A DNA stretch of 64,000 bases, from NCBI GenBank assembly GCA_029858565.1, contig JAOUEV010000008.1:2003-66002 (forward strand), given 5' to 3'. The translations under genes were made by a program, and so were the position numbers. Positions 119 to 25,523 of this stretch are shown here, in pieces. Each line of letters opens with the position of its first letter. The stretch's first letter is position 1. Origin of the DNA: Nitrospirota bacterium (GTDB lineage Bacteria > Nitrospirota > UBA9217). The notes below the pieces were generated by a model that was given only the letters and a program-made list of their open reading frames with translations, was not told where the DNA came from and searched no databases.

Positions 119-137
119 GCTCCCTCCTGTCGTCAGA

Positions 138-9295: not shown

Positions 9296-9586
9296 GAGGA
9301 CCGGTGCTGTCTTGCTCATCATTGCACCCGCGTCAGGGATCATCGAGTACTCTCAAGGTGCTTTCAGCAGAAACATGTCAAGTCGCAAGATCCGACCCTA
9401 TGAGGTCTGGGACCGATGAGGGATGGTGGGAGAGGAGGAGAGTTCTTCATGTGACAAGGGTACAGCAGAACCGACGTCAATAACTGCAATCAAGCCTGCC
9501 CCCGGTTCTCGCGGTCTCAGAATGCATATTTCTGATCATGGGCCTGCTTCTTCGACGCCGGAGGGGACGTAGTTGCACCCGTTGCG

Positions 9587-9874: not shown

Positions 9875-10203
9875 ATCTCCTTCAGTCTCTTATGGATAAT
9901 ATCCAGCTCGCGCCGGGGAATGATCCGCGTCTTCTTCCGGAAGGCGTGGACCAGGTAGATGGCGTCGCCCTTCTTTAGATAGTAGATGACCCGGACCTGG
10001 CCGGCCTTGTCGCGGAACCTGAGCTCATGCAATCCGGGACGGATGCCTGCAAGATTCCGGCTCAGCGGCATCTCCAGCGCCCGGCCGCTCTCCAGCAGCA
10101 AAAGCGCATCGGCGACCTCAAACCGCGTCGCTTCCGGCAGGCCAAGCAGAAAGTCCTCTACCGGACTCCTGCCGCCGGACGTTTGATAATATCGTATCTT
10201 CAT
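9871..10203 (-). CDS. RelE/ParE-superfamily toxin (HigB/Gp49-like)
   Basis: GRSPVEDFL, GLHELR, RVIYY, LVHAFRKKT motifs; toxin-before-antitoxin order. Confidence 0.85.
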   Translation of the reverse strand: MKIRYYQTSGGRSPVEDFLLGLPEATRFEVADALLLLESGRALEMPLSRNLAGIRPGLHELRFRDKAGQVRVIYYLKKGDAIYLVHAFRKKTRIIPRRELDIIHKRLKEI

Positions 10204-10209
10204 CTGATT

Positions 10210-10243
10210 ATAAGCTATTGCTTATTATAAGGCAAACCTTATA
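10210..10243. promoter_or_regulatory. Two adjacent palindromic operators of the TA promoter
   Basis: ATAAGC-tatt-GCTTAT (10210-10225) and TATAAGG-caaa-CCTTATA (10226-10243) immediately upstream of the toxin ATG. Confidence 0.65.
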
Positions 10244-10321
10244 TTCGGCCGGTTTTGCCATGCTGGGGGTCTTTCTCCGGATATCTTCGCGTCTCAGGGT
10301 CCCCGCAGATTCATCTCGACC

Positions 10322-11683
10322 CTACCCCCGCGGCACATACACCGCATACCCTCTCGGCGGAGCGGAGAACTCACCCCTTCCGTCCCCCTGGGTCTTCAGT
10401 TCCTTCGGATCGCGTGCATCGCGGCCGTTCCATGCCACCGGGGCAAAGGTCCTGTTGTTCCACTGCGTCGTGACCCATGCCTTGTTCCAGGCATCACCCC
10501 GGTTGTTCAGCACAAAGACCAGCCCCTTTTGATACCCAAAACCGTTCCGCTGCATGATGTAGAGATCGTCGTCCGCGTGGAGAACGGTCGTTCCGCCGCC
10601 TGCGTGGTCCTCATGGGCCTTGACGAGCGCCGCGATGCCGGTCGGTTCTCCCGGCCTGCCCAGTCCCCAGGCGAAATAGTCCTGCCAGAACACGCAGGGA
10701 TAACCCTCATGGGTGAGGATGAAGGCGTAGGCGAGCAGTTTGTCGTTCGTGATCCCCGGGGTGTCTCCGCCGCGGAAGTCGTGGTTGTCCACGAAGGTCA
10801 CGGCCTCGAACGGCCGGTCCGTCATGAGCACGCCGCCCACGGTCAGCCGCCGCAGGCTGAAGCCGTAGGAATCGCACAGGTCCTTCAGACGGTAGCGCAG
10901 CGGAAAATCGAAAGCGCCAACTCGGTTCGTCGCCCAGGAGTTCACGTCGTCGAGCCAGCTGTCGATGAACGCGTCGCCTGCCCAGCATTCGCCCACGCCG
11001 AAGATGTCCACGGGTTTGCCCTGCCGCGTATAGGTCCGGTCGTGGATCGCCCGGACGATCCAGCCGCCGAAGCCCTTGACGAAGTCATAGCGGAAGCCGT
11101 CGAAGCCGATCTCCTCGATCATCCACTTGGCGTGGTTCAGGATGCCGGTGGAGACGCGGGGGTTGATGTGGCAGAGGTCGGGCATGTCGCAGAAAGCGTT
11201 CGTATCGATGGCGCGGTAGGGCGAAGGATTGAAGCAGGTCCAGTCGCGGGTGAAGAGCCCGCTCATGGGCGTGAAGCGCGTCCACCACATGCGCCGCGTG
11301 ATCGGGTTGTACTCTTCCCCGTCCGCTCCGTTGTTGTGGTTCAGGACCAGGTCCGCGTAGACCTTGAAGTCCTTTGCGTGCGCCGCGCTGATCAGGGCCT
11401 TGAGCTCTTCTTCCGAACCGTACCAGGTCCGCACCTCGTCCCTGCCGTCCACCTTCCTGATTGCCTTCTGCGGGTACTTGCCCAGGTCGTAGTAGTCGTA
11501 GACGTCGTACCCCATGGACATGCCGCCCACGTTCGCGGCCTTGGAAGCCGGTGGCAGCCAGAGCGCGGTAAAGCCCGCGGCCTTGAGGCCCGGAACCTCG
11601 GCGGCCACGTGGGTCCACCAGGCGTATTCCTTTCCTTCGATCCTCGGACAGTCCCAGTAAAAAGCCTGCATGATGACGCCCAT
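10322..11683 (-). CDS. Alpha-amylase, GH13 family (no signal peptide seen)
   Basis: ADLVLNH, DGFRYDFVKG (nucleophile D), VGECW (acid/base E), FVDNHD. Confidence 0.92.
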   Translation of the reverse strand: MGVIMQAFYWDCPRIEGKEYAWWTHVAAEVPGLKAAGFTALWLPPASKAANVGGMSMGYDVYDYYDLGKYPQKAIRKVDGRDEVRTWYGSEEELKALISAAHAKDFKVYADLVLNHNNGADGEEYNPITRRMWWTRFTPMSGLFTRDWTCFNPSPYRAIDTNAFCDMPDLCHINPRVSTGILNHAKWMIEEIGFDGFRYDFVKGFGGWIVRAIHDRTYTRQGKPVDIFGVGECWAGDAFIDSWLDDVNSWATNRVGAFDFPLRYRLKDLCDSYGFSLRRLTVGGVLMTDRPFEAVTFVDNHDFRGGDTPGITNDKLLAYAFILTHEGYPCVFWQDYFAWGLGRPGEPTGIAALVKAHEDHAGGGTTVLHADDDLYIMQRNGFGYQKGLVFVLNNRGDAWNKAWVTTQWNNRTFAPVAWNGRDARDPKELKTQGDGRGEFSAPPRGYAVYVPRG

Positions 11684-11742
11684 GGGTGCCTCCGCTCAAA
11701 GAACGACGAAGCAACGTTGTTCAATCCATGCTTTCTCCCCGT

Positions 11743-12183
11743 TCACATCCTCATCCTGGTCAGCATCGGAATGGCGACGGCCGCCACGATGCCCAGCAAC
11801 CCTATGATGATCCCGATCAGCGCCGTGATCCCCGTGAATTTCCAGAACGACTTCTGATGGCTGAATGCGGCCTCCAGGTCCGCGACGCCGTACCCTTCGA
11901 GAAAGCGGCCGATGGCGGATGAATACCGGTACAGATACAGAGCCGGAATGAAATAGAAAACCGAAATAACGATATAGAACAGCCCGAGGAACGCAGTCGG
12001 TGCGCCCTTCTGGGTCTGGAGCATGCGCGCAAACACCGTGACGCCGACCCCCAGCAGCACCATGAATCCCACGGCGATGAAACCCAGGACCGCCAAGAGC
12101 TTTGTCCACGGTTTGATCGAACGCATCGATTCCACCATACCCCCGGTTACCGCAACACCGTTCTCCGCTGCTTCGTTGTTCAT
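11743..12183 (-). CDS. DUF5362-like membrane protein
   Basis: KPWTKLLAV...QKSFWKFTG pattern with three TM segments. Confidence 0.7.
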   Translation of the reverse strand: MNNEAAENGVAVTGGMVESMRSIKPWTKLLAVLGFIAVGFMVLLGVGVTVFARMLQTQKGAPTAFLGLFYIVISVFYFIPALYLYRYSSAIGRFLEGYGVADLEAAFSHQKSFWKFTGITALIGIIIGLLGIVAAVAIPMLTRMRM

Positions 12184-12376
12184 GACAATGTCCCCCTTCG
12201 CGTCAGCAGGTCTATTCACTGATACTGATAAAAGCTTTCTGTCTTCCGATCACGATGCTCTTTCAAAACGAATCTAGTACAGATAAATACAAATTGCAAG
12301 AAAGAACTGTCTCTGGCCGGTCTTTTTGGTGAAGATATTTCTACTACACTTTCGGGCAGGTAGGGCGCGGTGAAGC

Positions 12377-12493
12377 GGACAGTACAGCGACAGGAGGCAA
12401 CAAGATGGGGACGACATATGTTCGACAGAAAAGCGACAGAGGGGCGACAGACGGACGATAAATGGACGACAGAAAGGCGACAGGGTGCGACAG
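12377..12493. repeat. Helically phased array of CGACAG (reverse complement CTGTCG) at 11-bp period
   Basis: CGACA(G)-type cores at 12412, 12423, 12434, 12445, 12456 (CGATA), 12467, 12478, 12488; outlying copies at 12377 (GGACAG) and 12388. Confidence 0.85.
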
Positions 12494-12528
12494 AGAAAAC
12501 TGCGTGAGACGAACGGCAAGGACGGCTT

Positions 12529-12605
12529 GATCCCCGATGGAATCATTCGGGGATGACGGGCTAAACCACTGCCCCCTCACCCCTGCCCTCTCCCCAGAGG
12601 GTAGA
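12529..12605. repeat. REP cluster; second REP hairpin is interrupted by the mobile element
   Basis: TCCCCGA..TCGGGGATGAC hairpin, then CCCCTCACCCCTGCCCTCTCCCCAGAGGGTAGA whose missing GGG is found at 24426-24428. Confidence 0.7.
12601..12605. other. Left copy of 5-bp target-site duplication GTAGA
   Basis: Identical 5-mer at 24421-24425; bases on either side differ; joining the flanks restores CCCTCTCCCC-AGA-GGGTAGAGGG. Confidence 0.8.
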
Positions 12606-12611
12606 TATAAC

Positions 12612-12655
12612 TGCGCGTTTAGTTTTCCATTTTTTTGCACTCAGTTTGCCATTTT
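12612..12655 (+). repeat. Two tandem 22-bp putative transposase-binding sites (Mu R1/R2-like)
   Basis: TGCGCGTTTAGTTTTCCATTTT and TTTGCACTCAGTTTGCCATTTT, 16/22 identical; the first starts 6 bp inside the terminus. Confidence 0.75.
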
Positions 12656-12722
12656 ATAACCCAGAAAGCTCATTTTTTGTATGCTTAACGCCATATGACA
12701 AGTGCTTTATTCAAACTGTAGA

Positions 12723-12956
12723 TCAGGCTTCTTTCTCAAGCCCTTTAACTACCCGTGCCCGATAGTTATTGTATACGGTCTGAAAATTATCGCTGTTTTC
12801 CGTAGATGCGTAGAGGCCCCGCAACTGGTCGAGTAGCAGACTCCTATCCACGCCTGGGTGTTCTGCAAGCATACAAACAATATCGGTTAAGAGTACACCG
12901 ATCGCAGCAGTGGAATCAGCACAGGCAGTAACCGCGCTTTGTGTGTCTTTTTCCAT
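12723..12956 (-). CDS. Small hypothetical protein, last gene of the element's main operon
   Basis: CAGGAGG RBS before ATG 12956; 77 aa. Confidence 0.65.
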   Translation of the reverse strand: MEKDTQSAVTACADSTAAIGVLLTDIVCMLAEHPGVDRSLLLDQLRGLYASTENSDNFQTVYNNYRARVVKGLEKEA

Positions 12957-13011
12957 TTGTGATCCTCCTGGGAACAGCCGACTTGTCACGGTCAATAACG
13001 TGAATTAATAA

Positions 13012-15024
13012 TTATTGTCCGATTCCGAATGCACTTCTAACCGCTGGGCTTGTGTTTGCGAGTTTCAGTAATACGGTGGCAATATATCGCTCACCATCGA
13101 ACTGATGCTTGCCCACCTGCGCGTCCAGCTGAACGCCGGACTGGTTAATAACGCTTATCGAAACGTTTGGCATGTTGCCTACGTCGCCCTTGTTGATTCT
13201 GTCGAGGGCGGCCACGCCCTTGCGCGACACCACGTATTCACCGGTCTGCAGGATAGCGGGACGCTCGTCGGACGATAGCCCTCCCACATGGAACCGGGGG
13301 ATATATCCTCCGCTGTGCATGATCAGCCCGCCGGAATGTTTAAAATAAGGTCCAATAACCGGCGGTTGCCCGTACCCGGATCCTCCTACATTTGCACCTG
13401 GATCACTTATAAGTGCGCCGCCGACAGCGGTTGTTCCCGTTTTATTTTCGGCATTTTTAATACCTGTAATAGCAATCACAGATTGCTGCGCAAGAATATT
13501 TGAAATCGCGCGCGCCACGGAAAGCAAGAAACTTTTAATATATTGCCAGAAGCTCTTAAGTTTACCCGTCATTGCGTCAAAGAAAAATTCAGAGAACGCC
13601 TGTTCCATGCCGCGCGCGGTTTCCTGGGCGATATACACGCCTTCCTGGAAGCGGCTTCGAAGGCTGTCATTATACCGCTTTAAACCTTCGTCAATACCCT
13701 CTTGAAACGTGCCGTCCAACTCCCGCAGCGCCAACCTCAGGTCGGAGATTTTTCTGATGGTGTCATCGATCTCTTTTTGCTTCGCGGCCCGCTGGTTAGG
13801 ATCGTTGATCGGCTTCAGGTTCGCCTGCTGCACGCTGAGCAGCCGTTCCTCGATCCGTAGCCGCTCGCGGGCCGCATCAAGATGGGAAATATCGCGGTTT
13901 TTCTCTGCTATATCGAGGTAGGCCATCTCGCGCATGATCTCCGCTTCTCGCGCTTTCATGGCAACTTCATATTCCAATTGGGATTGTGCTCCCGTACCCC
14001 TGCCGCCTCCTGATCCGCTGAACGATGGATCGGTGCCGGTTCCGCCGCCGGAGAGCGGAGATTCCGCTTTTCCGAAGGCCGCCTTGAAGTACGTTGCGCT
14101 CAGGTTCTTCAGCTTCTCGAAGTCCGCCTTGGTCTTGGCCAGCGTCTCGTCGGAAACGATGCCGACCTTGTTCAAGGCCGTCTGCGCCAGGGTAGCCAGA
14201 CCCATGATGCCGGCGATGCCTCCGCTCATGAGCCCCATGACAATATCCACGGTCCCGAGCGCGAAACTCTTGATGCCGCTGCCGAAGCTCCAGATCGCGC
14301 TGCCGACGGTTTCCTTCAGATCGTTCCACCAGGCCTTGAGCTTCTGCATCTTTTCGGCGTTGTTGCCCTGGACATCGCCGAACTTTTCCATCTGCTTGCC
14401 CGCGTTCTCCATGGCCAGGGCATAGAGGTCCACATCGGTGATGCCCATGGACATGGCCTCGGACAGGAGCTGCACCTGTTCCTTGGAAACAAGACCGTAC
14501 TTCAGCAGCGCCCGCGGCATCTTGTTTGCGATCGCGTCAGTGATCGTCTCGTATGCCGTGCCCACGTCCTCGCCCGTGACTCGCGCGGAGATCCTCGCGG
14601 CCTCCATGATCTTCGTGAGCTGGTCGCCGTTGAGCCCCTGCATCATGCCCTTCACGGCCTTCTGCATGATGTCCGAGTCGTCCACGGTCCCGGCGGCCGC
14701 GCGCTTCATGTTTTCCAGGATCTCGTCCGCGCTCTCTCCGGACGCCTCGGCCACCTGGCGGAAAGACGCCTCGGCCTGCTCGGCCTTGGCTCCCAGCTCC
14801 ATGTACTCCAGCGCCTTGCTGATCGCGACGCCTGCGGCGGCAGCCGCGGCGGTGATGGCGATCCAGTTCTCTTTCATGGACTTCATAAAGGAGCCGGTCT
14901 GCTTGTCGGCCTTCCCGGTCTCGTCGCCGATGCCCTTGATCTGCTTCCCCAACTGGTCAAGGGTCCCCTTGGCCATGTTGTAGGCTTCGATGACGAGCTG
15001 TATTTTCTGGCGGTCGTTCGACAT
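13012..15024 (-). CDS. Phage tail tape-measure protein
   Basis: Ala/Gly-rich helical 670-aa protein; typical TMP N-terminus (IQLVIEAYN..KGTLDQL), central hydrophobic stretch, C-terminal FHVGGLSSDERPAILQTGEYV motif. Confidence 0.85.
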   Translation of the reverse strand: MSNDRQKIQLVIEAYNMAKGTLDQLGKQIKGIGDETGKADKQTGSFMKSMKENWIAITAAAAAAGVAISKALEYMELGAKAEQAEASFRQVAEASGESADEILENMKRAAAGTVDDSDIMQKAVKGMMQGLNGDQLTKIMEAARISARVTGEDVGTAYETITDAIANKMPRALLKYGLVSKEQVQLLSEAMSMGITDVDLYALAMENAGKQMEKFGDVQGNNAEKMQKLKAWWNDLKETVGSAIWSFGSGIKSFALGTVDIVMGLMSGGIAGIMGLATLAQTALNKVGIVSDETLAKTKADFEKLKNLSATYFKAAFGKAESPLSGGGTGTDPSFSGSGGGRGTGAQSQLEYEVAMKAREAEIMREMAYLDIAEKNRDISHLDAARERLRIEERLLSVQQANLKPINDPNQRAAKQKEIDDTIRKISDLRLALRELDGTFQEGIDEGLKRYNDSLRSRFQEGVYIAQETARGMEQAFSEFFFDAMTGKLKSFWQYIKSFLLSVARAISNILAQQSVIAITGIKNAENKTGTTAVGGALISDPGANVGGSGYGQPPVIGPYFKHSGGLIMHSGGYIPRFHVGGLSSDERPAILQTGEYVVSRKGVAALDRINKGDVGNMPNVSISVINQSGVQLDAQVGKHQFDGERYIATVLLKLANTSPAVRSAFGIGQ

Positions 15025-15057
15025 GGGTGTACTCCTTTCAGATAGTTCTACGTATAA

Positions 15058-15498
15058 TTAAACTCGCGAAGATGATCTGCTTTTCTGAAGGGTATATTTG
15101 AGCACGCTGTGTTGATCATCTTCGTTCATTTCTATCAAAATCTGTCTCACTTTTTCAATTAACGCTGTACCTCGAAGCATGCCTGGCATAGCTGATGGAG
15201 TCTCTATATTGTTTCGTACAAAGACATTATAGATGCCTGTCGGAGTCATTCCGTATTTTTTTGAAAGCTTCTGCAGTGTAAATTTGTTGGTATGATAATC
15301 CGCAATGATTTTGTTATCGCGTTCCTTCCTGCGCACGACAGTCAGGCACTCCAGCGTTTTCGGGAAATACACCTGTTCACCACGGAGCTCTGATCCAAGC
15401 TTCACCGTTGCACCGAGGCCGATGATTTTAGCGATCATCTGGTATGTTGGGTGAAGCTCGTTCTCCCGGATGCTAATTTGCTTTTCATCCATCAGCAC
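15058..15498 (-). CDS. Mor/C-family transcription activator (Mu middle-operon regulator-like)
   Basis: IAKIIGLGATVKL..ELRGEQVYFPK dimerisation segment and RDNKIIADY..LQKLSKKYGMT HTH. Confidence 0.8.
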   Translation of the reverse strand: MLMDEKQISIRENELHPTYQMIAKIIGLGATVKLGSELRGEQVYFPKTLECLTVVRRKERDNKIIADYHTNKFTLQKLSKKYGMTPTGIYNVFVRNNIETPSAMPGMLRGTALIEKVRQILIEMNEDDQHSVLKYTLQKSRSSSRV

Positions 15499-15516
15499 TT
15501 TACCTCCACAGTTACT

Positions 15517-16302
15517 TTAGACCGCGCAGTATTCGACACAGACGGTTTCCCGATTTTCGGTTATCAATGTAGGCTCTCCCATGAGCTCCCACCGCAGTTT
15601 TCTAAGGGCAGTAGCTTCAATTCGGGCGACACTGCTTATTGAAAGCCCAGCTTTTACACCAACTTCTTCCGGCATAAGATCACACCAGTATCTAAGAATT
15701 ATTATCTTACGTTCCCTGTCGTTAAGCTCCAGCAACGCTCTGCGAATATTATGGTTGAATGCCGATTTCTCAGCACTGCACTTGGTTTCAGCAGTTCTGA
15801 ATGAATTCCCATTTCTTCGCTTATCGAATATTTGCGGTATTATTGAACTATCCCCATCCGAAACGAACATGTCTTGCCGAGTAGCCGCGTCTTCTTTGTC
15901 GCCCAGAAGCTCATCTAACGAATTATGTTTGTTCTTATGGTAATCTTTGAGGCAGTCAATTATCTGACGGCTAATTGCTGGTTTCGCATAGGCAATAAGC
16001 CGGATCCCTCTTTCTGGATCGAACAGTTTAGCTGCTCTCATTAAACCCTGGCAACCTTCGGCAACCATGTCCATAAATGGCAATCCTGGGCGCCAATACT
16101 TCCTGACGATGAAAATAACGAACTTGATATTTGACTCTACGAGAAGTTCAGCTGCCGCTTCATCTCCGGATTGAGCCCTGCGAGCGATCCTGCTTTCATC
16201 CTCTCGTGATAATACTGGTCTTTGTTTAAGGTCTTCCCGAAGCATCCTGAGTAATTCCCAGTCTCCACCGCCATAACCGGAATTCTGTTTTTCCTCTTTC
16301 AT
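15517..16302 (-). CDS. Element-encoded sigma-70 family RNA polymerase sigma factor
   Basis: Region 1.2 (LSREDESRIARR), region 2 (LVESNIKFV, EGCQGLMRAAKLFDPERG), region 4 HTH (LNDRERKIIILRY..VARIEATALRKLR). Confidence 0.88.
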   Translation of the reverse strand: MKEEKQNSGYGGGDWELLRMLREDLKQRPVLSREDESRIARRAQSGDEAAAELLVESNIKFVIFIVRKYWRPGLPFMDMVAEGCQGLMRAAKLFDPERGIRLIAYAKPAISRQIIDCLKDYHKNKHNSLDELLGDKEDAATRQDMFVSDGDSSIIPQIFDKRRNGNSFRTAETKCSAEKSAFNHNIRRALLELNDRERKIIILRYWCDLMPEEVGVKAGLSISSVARIEATALRKLRWELMGEPTLITENRETVCVEYCAV

Positions 16303-16350
16303 GCGACCTCCCCGAGTGGTAATATCAACCAAGGAAGGATATCCCGCTCC

Positions 16351-16389
16351 AAAAGCCACGCCCTCCTGCCCAGGACGCGCGTGGCTTTT
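16351..16389 (-). terminator. Hairpin with U-tract between the 94-aa gene and the sigma gene
   Basis: AAAAGCCACGC-17 nt-GCGTGGCTTTT. Confidence 0.55.
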
Positions 16390-16673
16390 TATTTTGTCGC
16401 TGCTACGGGGATCTCTTTAAGTCCGTACGATGTTTCACGAATCAATGTTTCCAGTTCCTCGCATTTGGCGTGGGTTGCTTTTTGCAACCGACCAAGAATC
16501 GAAAATACCATTGACCATTCAATATCGATTTTGCGTCCTTCCCCGGAAGACAATGCAGTTATTTCTCCGAGCTTGATCATCGTTTCTATTTCATATAAGT
16601 GGTTTGTAATATCATTGCGCAGATGATCGAGTTTAACGTATGCGTTCTCTTTCTGTTTTGAAAGCTGATTCAT
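16389..16673 (-). CDS. Hypothetical protein (94 aa)
   Basis: GGGGG RBS-like run before ATG; co-oriented in the element operon. Confidence 0.6.
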   Translation of the reverse strand: MNQLSKQKENAYVKLDHLRNDITNHLYEIETMIKLGEITALSSGEGRKIDIEWSMVFSILGRLQKATHAKCEELETLIRETSYGLKEIPVAATK

Positions 16674-16753
16674 TGAAGCCCCCCTTGGTTAAGTTATAGC
16701 CACGCTTCCACCTGACAGCGTGGCTATTGATTTTATTATTTGCTGAACTCGTT

Positions 16754-17875
16754 CTACAGGTTGATCCCGATTGTTTGATACTTTGCTTTTATATCGTCAA
16801 CGGCTTTCTGGATCACAGCTCTGTCCTTGTACGGTCCAGAGAGAGAGCACACTGCTGCTATTTGACCATAGTTATGCTTATCCTCTAAACCTTCAAATGC
16901 TTTGAGGTTGAAGGTCGGTATTGCAAACCTGTCAGCATCGCCCCCCGTCCGCCGAATCGCAAAACCTTCAGCCCTGACTTCCTTCGACAGTCGAGCTGGA
17001 GAACCCATGATCTCATCCAAGGCCGTCAGCTCTTTGAACTTGTCGATGAGTTGAATAGAAAGCTTGATGTATTCCTGACCGACAAGTTCGGCCTGGCCCA
17101 TCAAAAACTCGTTGATGATTTCCTTCCGGCTGGACCGGAGCAGAGTCAGCTCATTCTCGGCTGCATCGAGTTTTCGCTGGAGGCCCGCGATGATTTGCTT
17201 CGCGTTGCCGGCAACCTTGTTGAATTCTTCAAGCGCTGCTTCCCGCGCCGCAATCTGCTCATCAAGCGCTTTGAGGTCTTTTCCCGTCGCAGTGCCCAGA
17301 GAGATGGCTGCAAGGATATCTTCTCTCTCTTGCAGCAGATCGTCTGCGGACTCGGGCACGGCCTGACGGGCCTTCTCGATCGTGCTTGTCTGATCCGAAA
17401 TGAGAGCCTGAAGTTCTGCGACGGTTCTTTCTGCCGCTGCAACATCCTCTTGATACTGAATAAGATCCTCGATGCCGAGTGAATGACCATAATTCGTCAG
17501 TTCTTTTTCGGCGTTCACGAGATCCTGATGTGTGCTCTGCGCGTGCTGCCGGGCATGTGCGGCCACTTCTTTGGCATCCGCAGCAGCCTTCTGAAGTTTG
17601 TCGAATTCATCTTTTTCCCAAGGGGTCATGCGCTCTACATCTTCTGCGTGGTGCCTCCCATTAAGGCGATTCACGCCTTCAATGGTGCTTTTAAATGAGT
17701 AGACCTGTCCTGTCGCCCGTGCTGCAATGTCCTCTTTGTCGTCGGCGACCTTGATAGCAGCAAGACATTTTTCTCTGAGCAACTGCGCACGACGACGAAG
17801 GTCTTCTCTCTTTGCCACCCGTTCCCTGTACGACACCTTCCCTGGGGCATCCTGTACGTCCGCTTTCTTAGCCAT
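16754..17875 (-). CDS. Coiled-coil protein of unknown function (373 aa)
   Basis: AGGAGG RBS; long Ala/Glu/Lys/Gln heptad-like runs. Confidence 0.8.
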   Translation of the reverse strand: MAKKADVQDAPGKVSYRERVAKREDLRRRAQLLREKCLAAIKVADDKEDIAARATGQVYSFKSTIEGVNRLNGRHHAEDVERMTPWEKDEFDKLQKAAADAKEVAAHARQHAQSTHQDLVNAEKELTNYGHSLGIEDLIQYQEDVAAAERTVAELQALISDQTSTIEKARQAVPESADDLLQEREDILAAISLGTATGKDLKALDEQIAAREAALEEFNKVAGNAKQIIAGLQRKLDAAENELTLLRSSRKEIINEFLMGQAELVGQEYIKLSIQLIDKFKELTALDEIMGSPARLSKEVRAEGFAIRRTGGDADRFAIPTFNLKAFEGLEDKHNYGQIAAVCSLSGPYKDRAVIQKAVDDIKAKYQTIGINL

Positions 17876-17968
17876 GTGCTTTCCTCCTATCGTTAATTTG
17901 ATGGTTCGTAAATTCTCACGAATGCTTTAGTGAGGGATTTCCTCGATGTCATCCGTGGAGTTATTTAT

Positions 17969-18178
17969 TTATCGCTTCGGCGATACCGATGCGATGTTTC
18001 GTACAATTTCATCAAGTTCGCTCTGTTCTTCTTTCGACACTTGTGCAGCAAATTCATTGGTATGTTCGCCTTCTGACAGATCAATAAAAAACACAGAGCC
18101 AGGGGACATGGGGACAAAGCGACATCCCGATATCTGGCGAAGTTTTTGTTGAAATTTATGATCGTCTATGCGTATCAT
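17969..18178 (-). CDS. Small hypothetical protein
   Basis: GGAG RBS before ATG 18178; 69 aa. Confidence 0.55.
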   Translation of the reverse strand: MIRIDDHKFQQKLRQISGCRFVPMSPGSVFFIDLSEGEHTNEFAAQVSKEEQSELDEIVRNIASVSPKR

Positions 18179-18230
18179 ATTTTCTCCACGAGGCTGCTGA
18201 TTATTCCCTAACGAGTTTTCTATCGAGCCT

Positions 18231-18599
18231 TTAGAGGGCAAATATATGTTTTGCCGCTCTCGTCAGTGCCAAAAGACGATCCCCAACAGTCGTATCCCTA
18301 CCGAACAGGATGAGATCGCGACGTTTGTCCTCCGGCACCATTTTCGAAGCACCTATTTTCCGAGCTTCCGAGTAGTAGAGCCGATGGCACGAACCGGATC
18401 CAAAACCACAGAAATCCTTCTGCCTCCCGGAAAGAGGCTTTCCACAGCGGCGGCAATGCCTCCCATTTGCCGCTTTATTAGCTGTGCGCAGCTCGCTGGG
18501 GGCCTCAGGGGGAGCAATATGGGGCATGGGGCTACCCTGGCACCCAAAACGCACATTTTCCTCCGTCGTATTCACCCCAGCACTGTCTAAACGTTGCAT
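18231..18599 (-). CDS. Hypothetical protein with putative Zn-finger
   Basis: GAGG RBS; CRRC-GKPL-x5-FC-x5-C motif common in phage early proteins. Confidence 0.6.
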   Translation of the reverse strand: MQRLDSAGVNTTEENVRFGCQGSPMPHIAPPEAPSELRTANKAANGRHCRRCGKPLSGRQKDFCGFGSGSCHRLYYSEARKIGASKMVPEDKRRDLILFGRDTTVGDRLLALTRAAKHIFAL

Positions 18600-18648
18600 T
18601 CCATGTTCCTCTCTACCTATCCGTCTGTAGCCCATCAACAACAGCCGT

Positions 18649-19170
18649 TTAAACGGTATTCGAAACCGGCTTACCCGTGTCCGGCGCGTCCGGTTTTCTT
18701 TCGCGTGCGCCGTCCTTTTTCCGCCTGACCATATTGTTCAATGTATGGATCACCTTCCGGGTTGTGACCGTATCCAGGAACCGAAGGTCTGAAACCTTGA
18801 AATGCCGATCTAAAAACGTGCGCAGGGCCTTTTCTCTTTTTTTATGATCCCTGATATCAACAGCATCACGCCAAAGGGCTTCGATCTTTCGGAGTTGAGA
18901 AGGCTGCGCCATATCTGCCCGATGACCAAGATTTTCAAACCGTTCTTTGCCCTCGAACTTATTCCACACGCCGCGCTCGATCGCGCTGTCTTCGAGTGCC
19001 GTAATGAGCGAGTTGGCTTGTTCGGATGTAAGCTGTTTTGAAGATGCCGCTTCAAAATTGATTGCGAGGGTACCCCGATACTCTTTTTCCGTCATCTTGA
19101 GGGCTGTTTTCAGCGTGTGAATTTTTTTGATCTGCCCTACGTCAATCATCTTATTTGCCGTGTTCAACAT
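18649..19170 (-). CDS. GemA / Mu gp16 family (DUF1018) protein
   Basis: QIKKIHTLKTALKM..YR..L..ASSKQLT and SQLRKIEALW..LRTFL..LRFL motifs. Confidence 0.82.
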   Translation of the reverse strand: MLNTANKMIDVGQIKKIHTLKTALKMTEKEYRGTLAINFEAASSKQLTSEQANSLITALEDSAIERGVWNKFEGKERFENLGHRADMAQPSQLRKIEALWRDAVDIRDHKKREKALRTFLDRHFKVSDLRFLDTVTTRKVIHTLNNMVRRKKDGARERKPDAPDTGKPVSNTV

Positions 19171-19501
19171 TGCCTGCTCCTTTCTCGTTCTTCTGAAACC
19201 AGTAACCTACTGTTCTGGGACATAGTCCAAGTCGCTTCGCTATTTTTTCGGCCGAAATCTTCGACTTTGTTCTGAGCCGCAATGCCAGCCGGTATGCATT
19301 AAGGTGAGGGGCAAGAACTCTAACAGTGTCTCCAGATGGTGTTTCCTGGAGCCAGTAACGAACTGTTCTTGGATTCATACCGATGCGTCGCGCTATTTCA
19401 ATTCCTGTTAACGCTTCACATTTCCTCAATCGCAAGGCTTCGAGATATTTGCTCTGGTGAGATAAATGAGCACGTATGTTACGCAGCCTGTCCTTTCTCA
19501 T
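19151..19501 (-). CDS. Tandem-HTH DNA-binding protein in the MuB position
   Basis: Two similar HTHs: GIEIARRIGMNPRTVRYW and AEKIAKRLGLCPRTVGYW; ATG 4 bp after the transposase stop. Confidence 0.7.
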   Translation of the reverse strand: MRKDRLRNIRAHLSHQSKYLEALRLRKCEALTGIEIARRIGMNPRTVRYWLQETPSGDTVRVLAPHLNAYRLALRLRTKSKISAEKIAKRLGLCPRTVGYWFQKNEKGAGNVEHGK

Positions 19502-19505
19502 GCGA

Positions 19506-22112
19506 TCAGTCCTCTTCAGAGAAAAAATATCCCGAGCCACGCTTAGTTAATACATAGCGTTCCGCTCCGACCTTTCGGAGTTTGATTCGCAGTCTTGTTA
19601 CGTGAACATCTATTGCCCGCAGCTCCATGGATAGGCCGTTTCGTGAGATGGCTTCCTTGATCGCGGCTCGTCCAAAAACTTTGCCTCGGTTTTCCATGAG
19701 AAGGCGAAGGAGTCTGAACTCCATGGGGAGGAGATCAACAATCTTGCCTTCAGCCACAACTCGCTCACGGTCCAGATCCATTAGTAGCGGGCCGGCGCTG
19801 ACTATTGATTTTTCAATAGCCGCGTTATATTCTTTCTTTTTCTCCAGGTAATCGGCCATGTCTCTTTGATATTGTGCTTCCGCATCTGCTTCATCACTCT
19901 CAAAAATGATAAGCGGTTTTTCCGGCCGAATCGGTCGTGAATCCTCCAGATATGAAATTTCCTGTAAAGTACTGTAGCCATCGGTGCCGGTTAGCTGCAT
20001 CTCGCGATCACGTCGAACGACTTCATCCATGGCAGTTTTTGCGAGACGAAGCACTTTGACTTTTTTCTTGTCGGTTGTCGTGCAACCGCGAGCAAGATTC
20101 ACTGCTACTATTCCTGCGGCAAGATGTTCTACGGTTTCAGATGGCGCAACGGCTCGATTGTCCTTCAAATATGATTTCGCGATTTTCCTTGTGCGGTGTT
20201 TATGGGCCAATGCTGCCTTGAGTTCCGCTCTTTCTATGTCCGTTTTAGCGAGCGCCTGGACTGCTCCCACCAAGTTGGCTTTCCCCAGGTACTCATCCGT
20301 TGTGGCATCAAAGACCCAAGCAGTCTGGTAGGCTTGCACATCCCGGCGTAAATAGACTTTGGTCCCTGTGAGGGCATACATGAATTCGCCAAAGTAAGTG
20401 ACCTGGAGTTCACTATCTCGCACGCCATTTCTGCCGATCGTGACTTCCTTACTGGTTCTCTGACAAAATAGTTTTAATGCATCGGCTCCGACCTTTCGCA
20501 TCTCCGATCGTTCAGCATTCCATACTTCATCCGGACATCTGCCCTGGAGCACCTTTCCATTTGACGGCATTTTATTAGCGACGGTCATGATATAGACATC
20601 CATCAACTTTAGATATTCGTCGTAGGAGAGAATGCGGCCGCTTTTAATTTCTCCGTCAAGGCTATCCGGTCTTTCGGTGACATTGCCGCCACGGTAGCCT
20701 GGCATGTGTTTGCTGAACCATTCCTTGTTGCGCAGAAAATCTCGTTCAATCGGTTTGGTCTGAGCATTGTATGGTAGTGCAAAATGAGGAGTGACGCCGA
20801 GAAGCGAAAGCATACTGGTCGTTTTCTTCTCGTCAACCGTCACCCGGCCGCGCTTCCGGCCTCCGGCAAAATCGCGCGATTTATAATCACGGCCATTGTC
20901 GATATAAAGCTCTTCCGGCAATCCGTTTTCTTTTACTGTGTAATAGAAGGATTGAAATATATGGTCGCTATTCGGCGGCTCAGGATGATGCAGCCAGCCA
21001 AGCCACTTGGAAGTTTTATAATCGCGCCATGCCGTGATCCATGGAAAACATGCCTTGCCGTTCGGCAGCATTACCGCGACATCGACTTGAGCGTGATCCC
21101 CTACAATGACTTGGCCGGGTTTTATCTGGCTGTAATCACGGTCCACATGCGATGCATATTTTCTATTCCAGGCCTCCGGACCAAAGCGAGCCAAAAAGAT
21201 TGAGCTTTTCGGTATTTCACGCTCGACGCGGCGAAGAAATGCGGACGGTGAGGGGAATCCTTCAAGTTGAAGCTGCGGATTGAGAGTCCGTGCATATCCG
21301 AGGGTACGAGTCCAACACGATTTAACGGAGGGCGCGCCTTCCTTCAGATATGCATTTTTGAAGTACTTATAATGGTCATCCTGCACTTTGCTGTTTCCGG
21401 CAGAATGACCGTATTTTGCGAGCAGTCCGGCAATGCCTTGCTCAGCATATTTATTTCGTGCATCGAGAACCGCGTCATAGGATGTTTTCAGGTCAGGCTG
21501 AGTGCCGTTCCACTCAGCTACAAATTGCCTGAGGCTTGCACCCTTGAGTCCAGCAGAGGCGCGAATGATTTGAAGATATTTATCAGCCTTCTGCCGAGCC
21601 CAGCCTGGCGCTGCCGCGTAGAGTTCACTCTCTATCTCTTCGTCGGTCATGGGCCGCAGCGCTGTGCCGATGTTTACGACTTCGCCTGTTGCGGTGTCGA
21701 TTAACTCGCCGCTTGCGATTTCTATATTCTTATTGGCATTCTCTGCGGTGATTGATAAAGAGTGCGCCGGTACAGAAGCAGATGGCACCTGACAAGGAGG
21801 AGGCTGCATCTGTACCGGCGCGAGTTGATCAGGGGTGCGGTCGCGAACCCGCTCCTGATCTATAGAAGATGCAACAGATGACCACAAAGGAGGTTTGTTT
21901 TCGCCATCTGTCACATCCATGCTGCCAGGTTGTAAGAAGAGTGCCTTGATGTCTTCGGCAAGACCATCAGTCTCAAATTCTTCGGCAACCTTATGGTTAA
22001 CGATTCTGGTACCGCACGACTGCCAACCTTCCTTTAGCTTGCGCTTTCGGATGGCATGCCAGGTGACGCCTTTTCGTTCGGCTATTTCTTTCAGTGTCGC
22101 CTTCATGCTCAT
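19506..22112 (-). CDS. MuA-like DDE transposase with C-terminal OmpR/PhoB-type winged-helix domain
   Basis: Mu-type N-terminal HTH (TLKEIAERKG..KEGW), catalytic D (GDHAQVD), D (IDNGRDY), E (KPIERDF), Mu-transposase C-terminal region, then EFRLLRLLMENRGKVF..IDVHVTRLR..TKRGSGY. Confidence 0.92.
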   Translation of the reverse strand: MSMKATLKEIAERKGVTWHAIRKRKLKEGWQSCGTRIVNHKVAEEFETDGLAEDIKALFLQPGSMDVTDGENKPPLWSSVASSIDQERVRDRTPDQLAPVQMQPPPCQVPSASVPAHSLSITAENANKNIEIASGELIDTATGEVVNIGTALRPMTDEEIESELYAAAPGWARQKADKYLQIIRASAGLKGASLRQFVAEWNGTQPDLKTSYDAVLDARNKYAEQGIAGLLAKYGHSAGNSKVQDDHYKYFKNAYLKEGAPSVKSCWTRTLGYARTLNPQLQLEGFPSPSAFLRRVEREIPKSSIFLARFGPEAWNRKYASHVDRDYSQIKPGQVIVGDHAQVDVAVMLPNGKACFPWITAWRDYKTSKWLGWLHHPEPPNSDHIFQSFYYTVKENGLPEELYIDNGRDYKSRDFAGGRKRGRVTVDEKKTTSMLSLLGVTPHFALPYNAQTKPIERDFLRNKEWFSKHMPGYRGGNVTERPDSLDGEIKSGRILSYDEYLKLMDVYIMTVANKMPSNGKVLQGRCPDEVWNAERSEMRKVGADALKLFCQRTSKEVTIGRNGVRDSELQVTYFGEFMYALTGTKVYLRRDVQAYQTAWVFDATTDEYLGKANLVGAVQALAKTDIERAELKAALAHKHRTRKIAKSYLKDNRAVAPSETVEHLAAGIVAVNLARGCTTTDKKKVKVLRLAKTAMDEVVRRDREMQLTGTDGYSTLQEISYLEDSRPIRPEKPLIIFESDEADAEAQYQRDMADYLEKKKEYNAAIEKSIVSAGPLLMDLDRERVVAEGKIVDLLPMEFRLLRLLMENRGKVFGRAAIKEAISRNGLSMELRAIDVHVTRLRIKLRKVGAERYVLTKRGSGYFFSEED

Positions 22113-22177
22113 CCTGTGTTTTAATAGTCGTTGCGTACTCGCTCAAAATACGATACAATCGTGTTCATTGCGGGCAA

Positions 22178-22426
22178 CTATGCCTTCTGTTGATTGCCAT
22201 CAGGCCACAGCTCGGAGATCCTCATCCGAAGTGCGGCCGCAATGGAGCGGCGTATTCGCTGCCCGCGCCTGCGCCCGTGAATAACAAAGGACACATATGC
22301 TTTTGTGACATGTTCTCTTTCTGCGATTTGGAGGCCAGTAACTCCCCTTAACACCATTATTGATTTTATGTTCCTCGCCCCCAGGACGCCGGAACGTGTG
22401 CTTTTTTTAAGTAGCTTTTTCGACAT
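22178..22426 (-). CDS. Ner/Cro-like HTH regulator
   Basis: 82 aa, IAAALRMRISELWP C-terminus resembles Mu Ner; lies between repressor and transposase. Confidence 0.75.
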   Translation of the reverse strand: MSKKLLKKSTRSGVLGARNIKSIMVLRGVTGLQIAEREHVTKAYVSFVIHGRRRGQRIRRSIAAALRMRISELWPDGNQQKA

Positions 22427-22477
22427 GTGTTTTTCCACCCTTGCTCCGTATGAATCGCTCCTGATGGCAATGTAGTA

Positions 22478-22548
22478 GTTAACCGATATACTATGGAATC
22501 TAACAACAAGCGGCTTGGGGTAAGCCACATTGTGTTAACCTGTATATC
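22478..22548. promoter_or_regulatory. Candidate operators in the divergent ner/repressor switch
   Basis: Direct repeat GTTAACC..TATA at 22478 and 22534. Confidence 0.4.
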
Positions 22549-22578
22549 ATGTTGTAGGTATGAATATAGTCACAAAAT

Positions 22579-23043
22579 ATGACAATGTCAACAACAAAAT
22601 TCATATTAACTGACATTATTAAACGCATCAAACAGCGCGAATTAATCCGCAGTGACGTTAAGGTCGCTGAATTACTAGGATTAGAGCGCACTGCATTTGC
22701 TGAGAGAAAGCGCAGGAATAGTATTCCGTACAAAGAATTAGTCATATATTGTGAACGAACCGGAACCAATATGCATTATCTTCTTACCGGAGAAGGTTTG
22801 GATATTAATGCTGCGCTTAGAACAGTTCCGTTAGAACTGCGAAATAAACAGCTGTACTACATTGGAAGATGGGTGGATGTGTTTTGGGAAAAAGCCACAG
22901 AAGAAGAGCGGGCATGGCTTTATGTGGAACTCCAAAGGGTATTCCCTGAATTTAAAAAATGGATACAGGAAGAAGAGGCAGAACTTGAAAGGTCTTTCAA
23001 TGAATTTTCGAACACTGAAAAACCGGAAGGTGGCGATCAATGA
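22579..23043 (+). CDS. Phage CI-type repressor (HTH)
   Basis: SDVKVAELLGL..RNSIPY..MHYLLTGEG, typical of the phage CI-repressor HTH family; divergent from ner. Confidence 0.82.
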   Translation: MTMSTTKFILTDIIKRIKQRELIRSDVKVAELLGLERTAFAERKRRNSIPYKELVIYCERTGTNMHYLLTGEGLDINAALRTVPLELRNKQLYYIGRWVDVFWEKATEEERAWLYVELQRVFPEFKKWIQEEEAELERSFNEFSNTEKPEGGDQ

Positions 23044-23666
23044 AGATAGTGATCTTCTGCATCATCACGACAATGTTTTTTTCGGGATGCGCGTCGAAGA
23101 GAACTTTCACTCAAGATGAATGGACCAGGATCACCACTCGGGAATATAGTGGTAGGTCAGCCACGGAAGTTTTTGATGCAATCGAAAAGGTTCTTCGCCT
23201 TGCCGATGAATCTGATGTGAAAATATACCGGTGGCCGGATCGCCTTATAGCAACGAGGTCATATCTTATCTACGCTGTGCTCGCAGCAACGAACGGACTA
23301 TATACATTCGACATTCATACAGTGCCAGGAGAATCAGGCACAAAAGTCGTTGCTATTATTACGCTCACCGCAGGAACAATAGCAGGAGCGCCGACAGCCT
23401 ACAATCCAACGATTATCACGACCCCTTCAGCGGGCGGCATGGTTATGGATAATCCGGAAACCTATGATCTGTTCTTCTCCCGAGTAAAGTATTTCCTCAA
23501 CGGGGGAGTCTGGGTAACCTGTGAGCGTGCCACAGAAATGTACCGAGATAGCCCATCCGGTGCACTCGATGGTTTATGTTTAATGAGTGATGATGACCTT
23601 CCGGAAGAAATGCGGCAGTCTACCGAAGGAAACAACTCCTGGCGATCTCGCCGCGCGCGTCGTTGA
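23040..23666 (+). CDS. Lipoprotein cargo, unknown function
   Basis: Signal peptide with lipobox FSG-C; overlaps the repressor stop by 4 bp. Confidence 0.75.
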   Translation: MKIVIFCIITTMFFSGCASKRTFTQDEWTRITTREYSGRSATEVFDAIEKVLRLADESDVKIYRWPDRLIATRSYLIYAVLAATNGLYTFDIHTVPGESGTKVVAIITLTAGTIAGAPTAYNPTIITTPSAGGMVMDNPETYDLFFSRVKYFLNGGVWVTCERATEMYRDSPSGALDGLCLMSDDDLPEEMRQSTEGNNSWRSRRARR

Positions 23667-23692
23667 TGTTTTAGTATTTAAAGGAGACATTC

Positions 23693-24007
23693 ATGGAACT
23701 GACAAAGCCAAGAGCGCAGGAGAAAAAGGTAAGAGATAAGATCATCGCAGCGCTACGAGAATATAGACCACAGGATGACATAGCTTTCTCAAAATTCACA
23801 AACGATAGAATCCCTGATGAGTTCTACCATAAAGAAATAACGAAAGCAGGGATTGAACAGGGATTAGAGTGTCTTCGTCTAATCAATAATATGAGCGGTC
23901 TCTCAGCAGGAGACTTTGATCTGCTCACGCTTTTGGAACACTACATTTTAAATCTTGATTCCCGCGATGCAATAAACAAGGTTCTCAATGCAAGGCGTGG
24001 ACGCTGA
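23693..24007 (+). CDS. Hypothetical cargo protein (104 aa)
   Basis: AAGGAG RBS; co-oriented with repressor and lipoprotein. Confidence 0.7.
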   Translation: MELTKPRAQEKKVRDKIIAALREYRPQDDIAFSKFTNDRIPDEFYHKEITKAGIEQGLECLRLINNMSGLSAGDFDLLTLLEHYILNLDSRDAINKVLNARRGR

Positions 24008-24114
24008 TTCTTTTTGGAACTGTGTACCTGGATCCCGACTGCTCATTACGCTTACATTCAGTGATGATCGTAGCGCCGCCTGCTCTCCCAGCCGATACCG
24101 TCCATATTCCTTGC

Positions 24115-24163
24115 AGGTTACATAGGTCACATAGGTTACAATGGGGCTATGTAACCAGTTACA
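24115..24163. repeat. Cluster of GTTACA/TGTAAC motifs
   Basis: AGGTTACAT-AGGTCACAT-AGGTTACAA (3 x 9 bp) then palindrome TGTAAC-CA-GTTACA. Confidence 0.8.
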
Positions 24164-24256
24164 AAGGTGAGTGCCGGAACAAGCGCGCTTAAATATTAAA
24201 AAGCCTTGCGTTAAACGATATTTAAACGGTCATCAAAATTTATCGCGCGATTTGAG

Positions 24257-24414
24257 AAAGTTGAAGACTGCCCGCGCAATAATGTAAAAAACGTGTACTT
24301 CCGGAAAAAAATGGCAAACTGATCCCGCCGCGTTTTTTTCTCGATTCCATCCTTAATATCAATACGTTATAAGCACACCTCCCTTTGTAACCAATAAAGA
24401 GAATTACCTGAAAA
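24257..24414 (-). repeat. Three putative transposase-binding sites (Mu L1/L2/L3-like), inverted relative to the left-end sites
   Basis: Reverse complement of 24308-24329 shares TCAGTTTGCCATTTT (15/15) with the second left site; 24257-24278 is 16/22 to the first left site; 24393-24414 is 12/22 to the second left site at the same offset from the terminus. Confidence 0.7.
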
Positions 24415-24420
24415 AGCATA

Positions 24421-24425
24421 GTAGA
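24421..24425. other. Right copy of target-site duplication GTAGA
   Basis: Matches 12601-12605 and is followed by the GGG completing the REP stem. Confidence 0.8.
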
Positions 24426-24446
24426 GGGCAGAAAATTTATCGTTGT

Positions 24447-24463
24447 TGTAATCTTCCTGTAAC
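24447..24463 (+). promoter_or_regulatory. Pho-box-like direct repeat in the pstS promoter
   Basis: TGTAAT (24447) and TGTAAC (24458) at 11-bp spacing about 55 bp upstream of the pstS ATG. Confidence 0.6.
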
Positions 24464-24515: not shown

Positions 24516-25523
24516 ATGAAGCATCTGTTGATCGCGATTGCGATTCTTTCGGCCTTAACCCTTTCCCCGGCAGCCCACGCCATCGAGACCCTGAACGGCG
24601 CTGGAGCCACGTTCCCCTATCCGGTCTACTCGGCCTGGGCCTATGACTACAGCAAGGTGGCGGGTATTCAGCTCAACTACCAGTCGATCGGTTCCGGCGG
24701 GGGTATCAAGCAGATCTCGGAGCGTACCGTGCATTTCGGCGCGTCCGACAAGCCGCTTACCCCCGAGGAACTTAAAAAGGACAACCTGCTCCAGTTCCCC
24801 GCGGTCATCGGCGGCGTGGTCCTGGTCGTGAACGTTCCGGGGGTGAAGTCCGGAGACCTGAAGCTTGATGGTTCCGCGACCTGCGGCATCTTCCTTGGGG
24901 AGATCAAGACCTGGAACGATCCCAGGATCAAGACCCTGAACCCGGGGCTCGGCCTGCCTGACTCGGCCATCACCGTGGTGCGCCGGTCCGACGGCTCCGG
25001 AACCACCTCCATATTCACCGACTATCTCACCAACGCCTGCCCGGCATGGAAAGCAAAGGTCGGCAGCGGCACCTCGGTCAACTGGCCCATAGGCATCGGC
25101 GGCAAAGGCAATGAAGGCGTGGCGAACTACGTGAAACGTTCGGCCAACTCCATCGGCTATGTGGAGTTCGCTTATGCAAAGCAGAACAAGATGGTCCACA
25201 CCAAGCTCAAGAACAAGGCCGGCTCGTTCGTTGAGCCGAACTTCGAGAGCTTCGAGGACGCGGCAAAGACCGGAGACTTTGATCCGAAAAAGGATTTTTT
25301 CCTCTGGCTCACCAACGCGCCGGGAAAGAACGCCTGGCCCATTGCCGGTGCGACCTTCATCCTGCTGGCCGGCGACAAGAAGGACGTGAACACCCGGGTT
25401 GTCAAGTTCTTTGACTGGGCATTCCAGAACGGCGATGCCAAGGCAAAGGAGCTGGTCTATGTGCCTCTGCCCAAGACGCTCAAGGACAAGGTGCGGCAGT
25501 ACTGGAAAATAAAGGGAATATAG
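24516..25523 (+). CDS. pstS: Phosphate ABC transporter substrate-binding protein
   Basis: GAGATFP, YQSIGSGGG, RSDGSGTT, IGYVE motifs; AAGGAGG RBS. Confidence 0.96.
   Translation: MKHLLIAIAILSALTLSPAAHAIETLNGAGATFPYPVYSAWAYDYSKVAGIQLNYQSIGSGGGIKQISERTVHFGASDKPLTPEELKKDNLLQFPAVIGGVVLVVNVPGVKSGDLKLDGSATCGIFLGEIKTWNDPRIKTLNPGLGLPDSAITVVRRSDGSGTTSIFTDYLTNACPAWKAKVGSGTSVNWPIGIGGKGNEGVANYVKRSANSIGYVEFAYAKQNKMVHTKLKNKAGSFVEPNFESFEDAAKTGDFDPKKDFFLWLTNAPGKNAWPIAGATFILLAGDKKDVNTRVVKFFDWAFQNGDAKAKELVYVPLPKTLKDKVRQYWKIKGI

Follow-up and report, generated by a model that had tools for sequence, protein, structure and literature searches.

Mu-type elements are the standard example of near-random transposition, in which MuB supplies the targets. 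In bacteria, site-specific DDE transposition is, to our knowledge, otherwise mainly found in Tn7-like systems, which depend on an AAA+ adaptor as well as a separate selector. The element described here lies in a 64,000-nucleotide stretch of a Nitrospirota genome (assembly GCA_029858565.1, contig JAOUEV010000008.1), called the window below, whose numbering is used unless another locus is named. Positions 12606–24420 (minus strand) are a complete, compact Mu-family transposon of 11,815 bp, with attR as its low-coordinate end and attL as its high-coordinate end, inserted in the divergent intergenic region upstream of the phosphate-binding protein gene pstS. It is likely, in our judgment, that this compact Mu-family transposon inserts with a 5-bp stagger, is sited by the Pho box of the pstS promoter, is probably tethered there by a PhoB-type domain fused to its transposase, and has been mobile at its small size.

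The likeness to Mu and Mu-like phages includes a MuA-family DDE transposase with I-gamma and C-terminal Mu domains, a 5-bp duplication, several end repeats of ~22 bp (L1 apart from L2, R1 and R2 contiguous), and the gene order of the early region. Unlike Mu, the element has no MuB, its transposase has a PhoB-type winged helix at the C terminus, and its termini are TA...TA; it belongs to a group of 9–13.5 kb elements with a tape-measure gene only and no head, terminase, or lysis genes, and it is site-specific rather than near-random. Tn7 (TnsABC plus TnsD, with attTn7 downstream of glmS) likewise makes a 5-bp duplication at a fixed short distance from a sequence recognized by a selector, beside a conserved housekeeping locus that is left undamaged as a safe harbor. 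Tn7 uses a separate selector, TnsD/TniQ, acting via the AAA+ adaptor TnsC, together with a heteromeric TnsA/TnsB transposase and a single orientation, whereas in the present element the putative selector is fused to the transposase, there is no AAA+ adaptor, and both orientations occur. The fused domain resembles PhoB/OmpR-family regulators in its PF00486 match, in having PhoB as its best structural and NCBIfam match, and in its presumed target of direct hexamers with an 11-bp period before pstS; unlike these regulators it has no receiver domain, is attached to a transposase, and is 34% identical to the PhoB domain of the host. The Pseudomonas saltovirus Ab30 has insertion hotspots 55–61 bp from a palindrome resembling repetitive extragenic palindromic (REP) DNA, which take ~5% of insertions (PMC5977238). 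Ab30 is also Mu-like and, without orientation bias, prefers to insert a set distance away from a recognizable motif (PMC5977238), but the motif of the present element is a direct-repeat Pho box, 21 bp away, used by five of five mapped pstS-side junctions.

Both boundaries of the element are fixed to the base. Related ends were found via the closest transposase homologues (P0002–P0008), traced to their contigs. When six attL and five attR ends are aligned, conservation starts exactly at TAT (12606) and ATA (24420) and the outward flanks are unrelated, and the blastn homology of loci L086 and L093 to the window begins at base 24420. The pentamer GTAGA, read directly in the sequence, stands immediately outside each end (12601–12605 and 24421–24425), and the bases flanking each copy differ, so the repeat is exactly 5 bp. 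Were the ends known only to ~20 nt, the match alone would not be significant, because ~1.6 chance 5-mer matches would be expected; with ends fixed to the base, an exact 5-bp match arises by chance at a rate of ~1/1024 for each locus. The duplication is testable in two loci only, and the other one, L086/L087 (GCA_040960975.1, GCA_040961345.1), holds a 13,463-bp relative with homologous termini and an exact GATTG on both sides. The 5-bp target duplication and both element boundaries are therefore real.

Further evidence comes from the flanks. Deleting 12606–24425 yields CTGCCCTCTCCCC-AGA-GGGTAGAGGGCAG, a 13-bp stem with one C/T mismatch, and the predicted empty-site sequence is CCCCAGAGGGTAGAGGGCAGAAAATTT. 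The folding energy of the rebuilt site, taken as single-stranded DNA, is -15.4 kcal/mol (z = -3.7; none of 200 shuffled sequences is as stable), while the occupied left junction has only a 9-bp stem remnant at -9.6 kcal/mol (z = -2.1). The folding places the left part of the hairpin at 12583–12605 (plus strand), comprising the 5' arm (12583–12595), the loop (12596–12598), and the first 7 nt of the 3' arm (12599–12605). The remainder of the 3' arm, GGGCAG (24426–24431, plus strand), lies just right of the right GTAGA, parted from its partner by the insertion. Its pairing with CTGCCC (12583–12588), for which the chance is ~1/4096, is a separate line of evidence that the two flanks once adjoined. 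An earlier note on this DNA had read it as a transposed unit that is complete, has both ends intact, and carries a genuine 5-bp duplication, and the GTAGA copies, the alignments of termini, the blastn edge, and the GATTG of L086 bear this out. The same note took the duplication as a signature of Mu and Tn7, and a Mu-type origin agrees with a transposase carrying the Mu DDE_2, I-gamma, and Mu-transpos_C domains. Its view that the insertion splits a hairpin holds as well; the 10-bp stem with one mismatch that it described is the inner part of the 13-bp stem.

Having the junction fixed to the base exposes a regularity: five insertions, in two orientations, at one Pho-box position. The gene pstS (24516–25523, plus strand) is the right flank of the element, and the predicted Pho box of its promoter (24436–24463, plus strand) consists of TTTATC at 24436, TGTAAT at 24447, and TGTAAC at 24458, with an 11-bp phase. 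The pair TGTAAY-N5-TGTAAC occurs once in the window (24447–24463, with 0.07 expected). Among 46 Nitrospirota relatives without an insertion, 33 have the pair ahead of pstS, with only 10 occurrences elsewhere in 756 kb of the same loci; before pstS it is often flanked by TTTAAC and a further TGTAAC on its upstream side, in the 11-bp phase, and by a -10-like TATAAT on its downstream side. The hexamer array of the pstS promoter, with direct repeats of 11-bp period close to the -10 region, has Pho-box architecture, and by analogy with the Pho boxes of E. coli and Bacillus it would be bound by PhoB and regulated by phosphate.

Counted from the element terminus, the first hexamer of the pair lies 27 nt away in the window and 27 nt in L091, where attL faces pstS, and 26 nt in L086/L087, 27 nt in L177/L178, and 26 nt in L179 (ambiguous by 2 in a TA run), where attR faces pstS. 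The position is therefore common, within 1 bp, to the window and its relatives in four other Nitrospirota genomes, although two of the five loci are attL-proximal and three attR-proximal, two transposase lineages are involved, and the PstS proteins of the hosts are 72–84% identical. Distance is fixed across these loci and orientation is not. In the window the insertion lies 21 bp upstream of the proximal hexamer pair, and the 5-bp target precedes the third hexamer by about one helical turn. This target is just outside the hexamer array, and the pstS promoter is thereby left intact. The 5-bp duplication itself is textbook Mu behavior; the regularity lies in the position relative to the Pho box.

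The transposase carries a candidate reader of these hexamers. It is a MuA-family DDE protein of 868 amino acids (19506–22112, minus strand) with a C-terminal extension; it matches the Pfam families DDE_2, HTH_Tnp_Mu_2, and Mu-transpos_C (PF02914, E 8e-15; PF09039, E 6e-8; PF09299, E 9e-5), and the DDE-motif columns are invariant in the transposase alignment. Residues 791–864 (19521–19742, minus strand) form a C-terminal PhoB-type winged-helix domain that matches PF00486 (Trans_reg_C) at E 6.7e-17, with 61.8 bits against a cutoff of 26.2. Of the solved structures it matches best those of the E. coli PhoB DNA-binding domain, 1QQI, 1GXP, and 3T72 (E ~2e-11), and TIGR02154 PhoB is the best NCBIfam response-regulator model for the transposases of both the window and L179. 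All seven of the close homologues P0002–P0008 (60–72% identity) carry PF00486 in a C-terminal extension of ~130 amino acids, while the majority of the family, at ~650 amino acids, ends before it. The transposase of L179, a locus on contig JBFONC010000339.1, has 898 amino acids, is only 29% identical to that of the window, and likewise ends in a PhoB-type domain. A second difference lies next door. In the nearest non-fused relatives, L083–L085 from IMG/VR, a MuB-like AAA_22 ATPase directly follows the transposase, whereas the fused clade has a small helix-turn-helix (HTH) protein there. In the window this is a double-HTH protein (19151–19540, minus strand) at the MuB position of the non-fused relatives. 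Pfam scans of all element open reading frames (ORFs) gave no MuB-like ATPase and no match to TnsA, TnsC/TniB, or TniQ/TnsD.

No description of such a transposase fusion was found in the searchable literature. A metagenome scan with the winged HTH alignment returned ordinary OmpR-family regulators only, at ~40% identity, and a protein search with the C-terminal 174 amino acids of the transposase gave no scored matches. Apparent transposase matches upstream of pstS in L002 and L004 were set aside as winged HTH segments that match host PhoB only.

The locus combines Mu-type insertion with a 5-bp stagger, recurrent and precise placement at the Pho-box pair, the absence of MuB, and the presence of a PhoB-type domain. 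From this combination we infer a tethering mechanism. The fused C-terminal winged helix would bind the Pho-box hexamer repeats and hold the transpososome there, and this tethering would replace target capture mediated by MuB. Strand transfer, of the staggered 5-bp Mu type, would then take place just outside the PhoB-binding array in the divergent intergenic region upstream of pstS, duplicating GTAGA. A long acidic linker of ~100 amino acids would permit either orientation. An intact pstS promoter would make the site a safe harbor, present once in almost every host. On balance we lean toward a MuB-less Mu-type lineage that bears its own PhoB-like target selector on the DDE transposase and places a 9–14-kb cargo ~21 bp upstream of the pstS Pho box.

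Several observations weigh against this reading. Binding of TGTAAC repeats by the fused domain is a prediction, and the domain has low identity (34%) to the DNA-binding domain of the host's own PhoB. At the ends of the element, the termini are 5'-TA...TA-3' in all aligned ends (TATAACT... at 12606–12612 and ...GCATA at 24414–24420) in place of the TG...CA that Mu, Tn7, and retroviral-type elements typically have. The attL terminal site L1 of the window reads TTCTCTTTATT at 24391–24410, where five relatives have TTCTCCAyTT; because these substitutions fall in a core that the five relatives conserve, the transposase site at L1 may be weakened and the window copy may be less active. In L091 both termini are present, 8,952 bp apart, but the flanking pentamers differ (ATAAG and ACCGT), which points to a later rearrangement such as an adjacent deletion or inversion, or to a chimeric or misassembled contig. 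For L177 and L179 only the pstS-adjacent end is seen, and the contigs of L088, L090, and L093 include just the attL end, which is not near any Pho box. The search for an empty allele was negative: the gapped pattern TGCCCTCTCCCCAG-N(0-30)-AGAAAATTTATCGTTG had 0 matches in metagenome_contigs, and exact-protein look-ups with PstS and the DUF5362 protein of the left flank returned only short Logan contigs from SRR7132115, from the same organism, one of which covers the left junction in its occupied state and ends 35 nt inside attR. The last point is that the element itself holds a TGTAAC/GTTACA cluster at 24118–24165 that uses the hexamer of the host Pho box, and the fused domain could have an internal enhancer or operator role there.

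Within L091, the element spans 128–9079 of that locus, with attL facing a pstS-type promoter at 27 nt and attR abutting the 3' end of an LPG-synthase gene.

The search of relatives and metagenomes for an empty site, suggested at the outset as a check, came back without one in metagenome_contigs and in GTDB, and the SRR7132115 left junction is occupied. The other SRR7132115 contig starts 25 nt past the right junction. Among GTDB genomes the nearest PstS is 78% identical, and for this reason no nucleotide-level empty allele is found there; the left-flank genes (amylase and DUF5362) lie upstream of pstS in none of the GTDB relatives examined. The contig ends in L082 (1–40) and L001 (1–30), both from Logan SRR7132115, fit repeats, alternative junctions, or merely low coverage.

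The main rival to tethering by the fused domain is a site chosen via the host, with bound host PhoB, or the DNA bend that it makes, attracting the transpososome while the fused domain serves the TGTAAC/GTTACA cluster or the genes of the element. Mu transposition favors bent target DNA, which speaks for this explanation, as do the conserved same-hexamer cluster inside the element and a GGTTACA motif within attL. Three points make it rather unlikely. Gain of the domain coincides with loss of MuB, the domain is present in two transposase lineages that are 29% identical and have a common target, and ordinary Mu-like relatives without the domain are not seen at pstS. The cluster itself (GGTTACAtaGGTCACAtaGGTTACA...TGTAACCaGTTACA, 24118–24165) lies 260–300 nt from attL, and L088 and L090 conserve it at 89–91%; its possible roles are those of an operator, an enhancer, or a PhoB input point into the element.

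We return to the reading of a transposon that moves as a small unit, guided by its own fused domain. The earlier note left it undecided whether the element had transposed at this size or shrunk afterward, and the relatives favor the former. Complete members measure 8,952 bp (L091), 11,815 bp (window), and 13,463 bp (L086), and L179 exceeds 13.7 kb. Head genes are absent from every related element locus examined, the unrelated phage contig L180 apart. In the window, L089, and L179, the tape-measure gene either adjoins the Mor/regulatory region that precedes it or is separated from it by up to three small ORFs; L086 has no detected Mor, and its tape-measure gene follows the early region. The window, L086, L089, and L179 are thus far-diverged members with a common tape-measure placement. 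From this comparison the compact layout (9–13.5 kb, no head genes) looks ancestral to the clade. Because members sit at independent sites, the element has most likely been mobile at about this size and did not shrink in place.

The competing account is a decayed full-length Mu-like prophage that shrank in place after random insertion, its pstS location being a single ancient insertion inherited vertically. Tape-measure homologues with 40–51% identity do occur on contigs of 30–38 kb, and the one looked up, L180, has the normal tail module of a siphovirus-type phage. Gene content also varies between members, and L179 has a nested second attR-like copy. Vertical inheritance of one old insertion is unlikely, however, because the elements differ in orientation and in duplication, and because no element lies upstream of pstS in 46 relatives of similar PstS divergence. 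The PstS proteins of the hosts are only 72–84% identical, no member has head genes, and diverged members have in common a tape-measure position after the early or regulatory region. We regard this account as improbable.

A full-length tape-measure gene is the one virion gene kept across the compact elements (window, L086, L089, L177, and L179), and its retention may be linked to a satellite lifestyle. In L179 the second, internal attR-like copy lies between the tape-measure gene and a gene with a Collar domain (tail-fiber-like); this copy has one repeat and ends in GTTACG. The two attR-like copies of that locus are at ~12050–12102 and 13741–13815, with the true attR 1.7 kb after the internal copy, which may be a nested or tandem remnant.

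A further alternative, raised by the earlier note, is that the transposase prefers palindromic REP-like DNA and that the site was chosen for its hairpin. The insertion does fall within the 3' arm of a strong hairpin, an extragenic imperfect palindrome by folding, and the Pseudomonas Mu-like phage hotspots 55–61 bp from a REP-like palindrome offer a precedent (PMC5977238). Similar CCCTCTCCCC/GGGGAGAGGG hairpins recur in other genomes: they are sporadic in other Nitrospirota loci, including the pstS-pstC spacer of L086, and repeated in some alpha-proteobacterial loci. The hairpin sequence has no second copy in the 64-kb window, which is the only part of this genome at hand, so that a low-density family is possible. 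The recurrence elsewhere gives the REP idea of the note some basis, but with one copy in 64 kb and only sporadic counterparts in other Nitrospirota loci the REP label is not supported. A 13-mer near-match at 35553 looks like chance, and Rfam and terminator scans of the left flank returned nothing. Nor does targeting by the hairpin fare better. The rebuilt L086 target, the only other one that can be rebuilt, has no significant hairpin (z = -1.05), and the hairpin in the L086 pstS-pstC spacer was left unused as a target. For L091, L177, and L179 the targets cannot be rebuilt, but no hairpin motif was noticed in their flanks, and all three keep the Pho-box spacing; the common feature of the five insertions is the 26–27 nt to the Pho-box pair. 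We give this alternative very little weight. The hairpin merely occupies the spot 21 bp upstream of the Pho box in this genome and is not the basis of site choice. A chance origin of the 5-bp repeat, with the true ends at other positions, is next to inconceivable: a 5-mer match is expected by chance within ~20 nt of loose ends and the termini lack TG...CA, but alignments and blastn fix the ends to the base, the hairpin is rebuilt, and L086/L087 has a second exact duplication.

The ends have a Mu-like layout, with several repeats in inverted orientation at both ends that are candidate transposase-binding sites. The attR terminus (12606–12658, plus strand) starts with an invariant TATAACT, followed by two contiguous repeats of ~22 bp, R1 (12613–12636) and R2 (12637–12658), whose core is AGTTTkCCATTTT (CAGTTTTCCATTTTT). 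At attL, the terminal site L1 (24391–24420, minus strand; TATGCTTTTTCAGGTAATTCTCTTTATTGG reading inward) differs from the five relatives in its TCCA core, and the internal site L2 (24305–24328, minus strand; GATCAGTTTGCCATTTTTTT) is a copy of the attR repeats in inverted orientation, set ~92 nt in from the terminus. A search of IMG/VR with the attR double-site pattern gave two matches, both unrelated. Ends of this type are absent from the IMG/VR transposase relatives L083–L085 and from L180, the phage with a tape-measure homologue.

From attL, the gene order follows that of Mu: a divergent repressor, a Ner-like gene, the transposase, GemA, and Mor. The CI-type repressor (22579–23043, plus strand; Phage_CI_repr) is transcribed toward attL as in Mu, with two small ORFs next. 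The Ner/Cro-like small repressor (22178–22528, minus strand) matches phrog_1468 at E 5e-9. Past the transposase and the double-HTH gene come a GemA homologue (18649–19170, minus strand; E 1e-18), four ORFs without a family match between GemA and the sigma gene, a sigma-70-family factor (15517–16359, minus strand), and a Mor-family activator (15058–15498, minus strand). The tape-measure protein gene (13012–15024, minus strand; 670 amino acids) is the sole clear virion-type gene in the element, and a 90-amino-acid ORF (12723–12995, minus strand) lies between it and attR. The element has no terminase, portal, capsid, or lysis genes, its virion module being reduced to the tape-measure gene.

The host is a member of the Nitrospirota/Thermodesulfovibrionales, with a PstS at most 78% identical to that of any GTDB representative. 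Its own phoB (1259–2122) and phoR (2119–3912) are on the plus strand. In most relatives phoR abuts pstS, while here 8.7 kb (3913–12600) separate phoR from the element, which suggests that the phoR–pstS spacer is a general integration hotspot. The 8.7 kb hold a Gp49/HTH_37 toxin–antitoxin-like pair, an alpha-amylase gene, and a gene for a DUF5362 membrane protein (11743–12183, minus strand) that forms the left flank of the element, among others. At 12377–12493, upstream of the DUF5362 gene and 107 nt to the left of the insertion, there are eight or nine CGACAG hexamers in an 11-bp phase (six pair matches, 0.45 expected). None of the other insertion sites has this array, whose hexamer is not that of the pstS Pho box; the hexamers look like candidate binding sites for an OmpR-type regulator.

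If the reading proposed here is true, these elements would represent protein-guided, site-specific DDE transposition carried out by a single polypeptide, with the fusion present in two lineages that are 29% identical. A response-regulator DNA-binding domain in place of the MuB-interaction end would be a minimal example of specificity evolving by domain fusion, and the system would offer a compact natural template for programmable insertion. The compact elements may be satellites of helper phages, or they may be purely chromosomal transposons. For the organisms concerned, the findings suggest that the pstS promoter is a safe-harbor attachment site in Nitrospirota, and they point to a family of compact elements derived from phages, which may live as satellites or be domesticated remnants.

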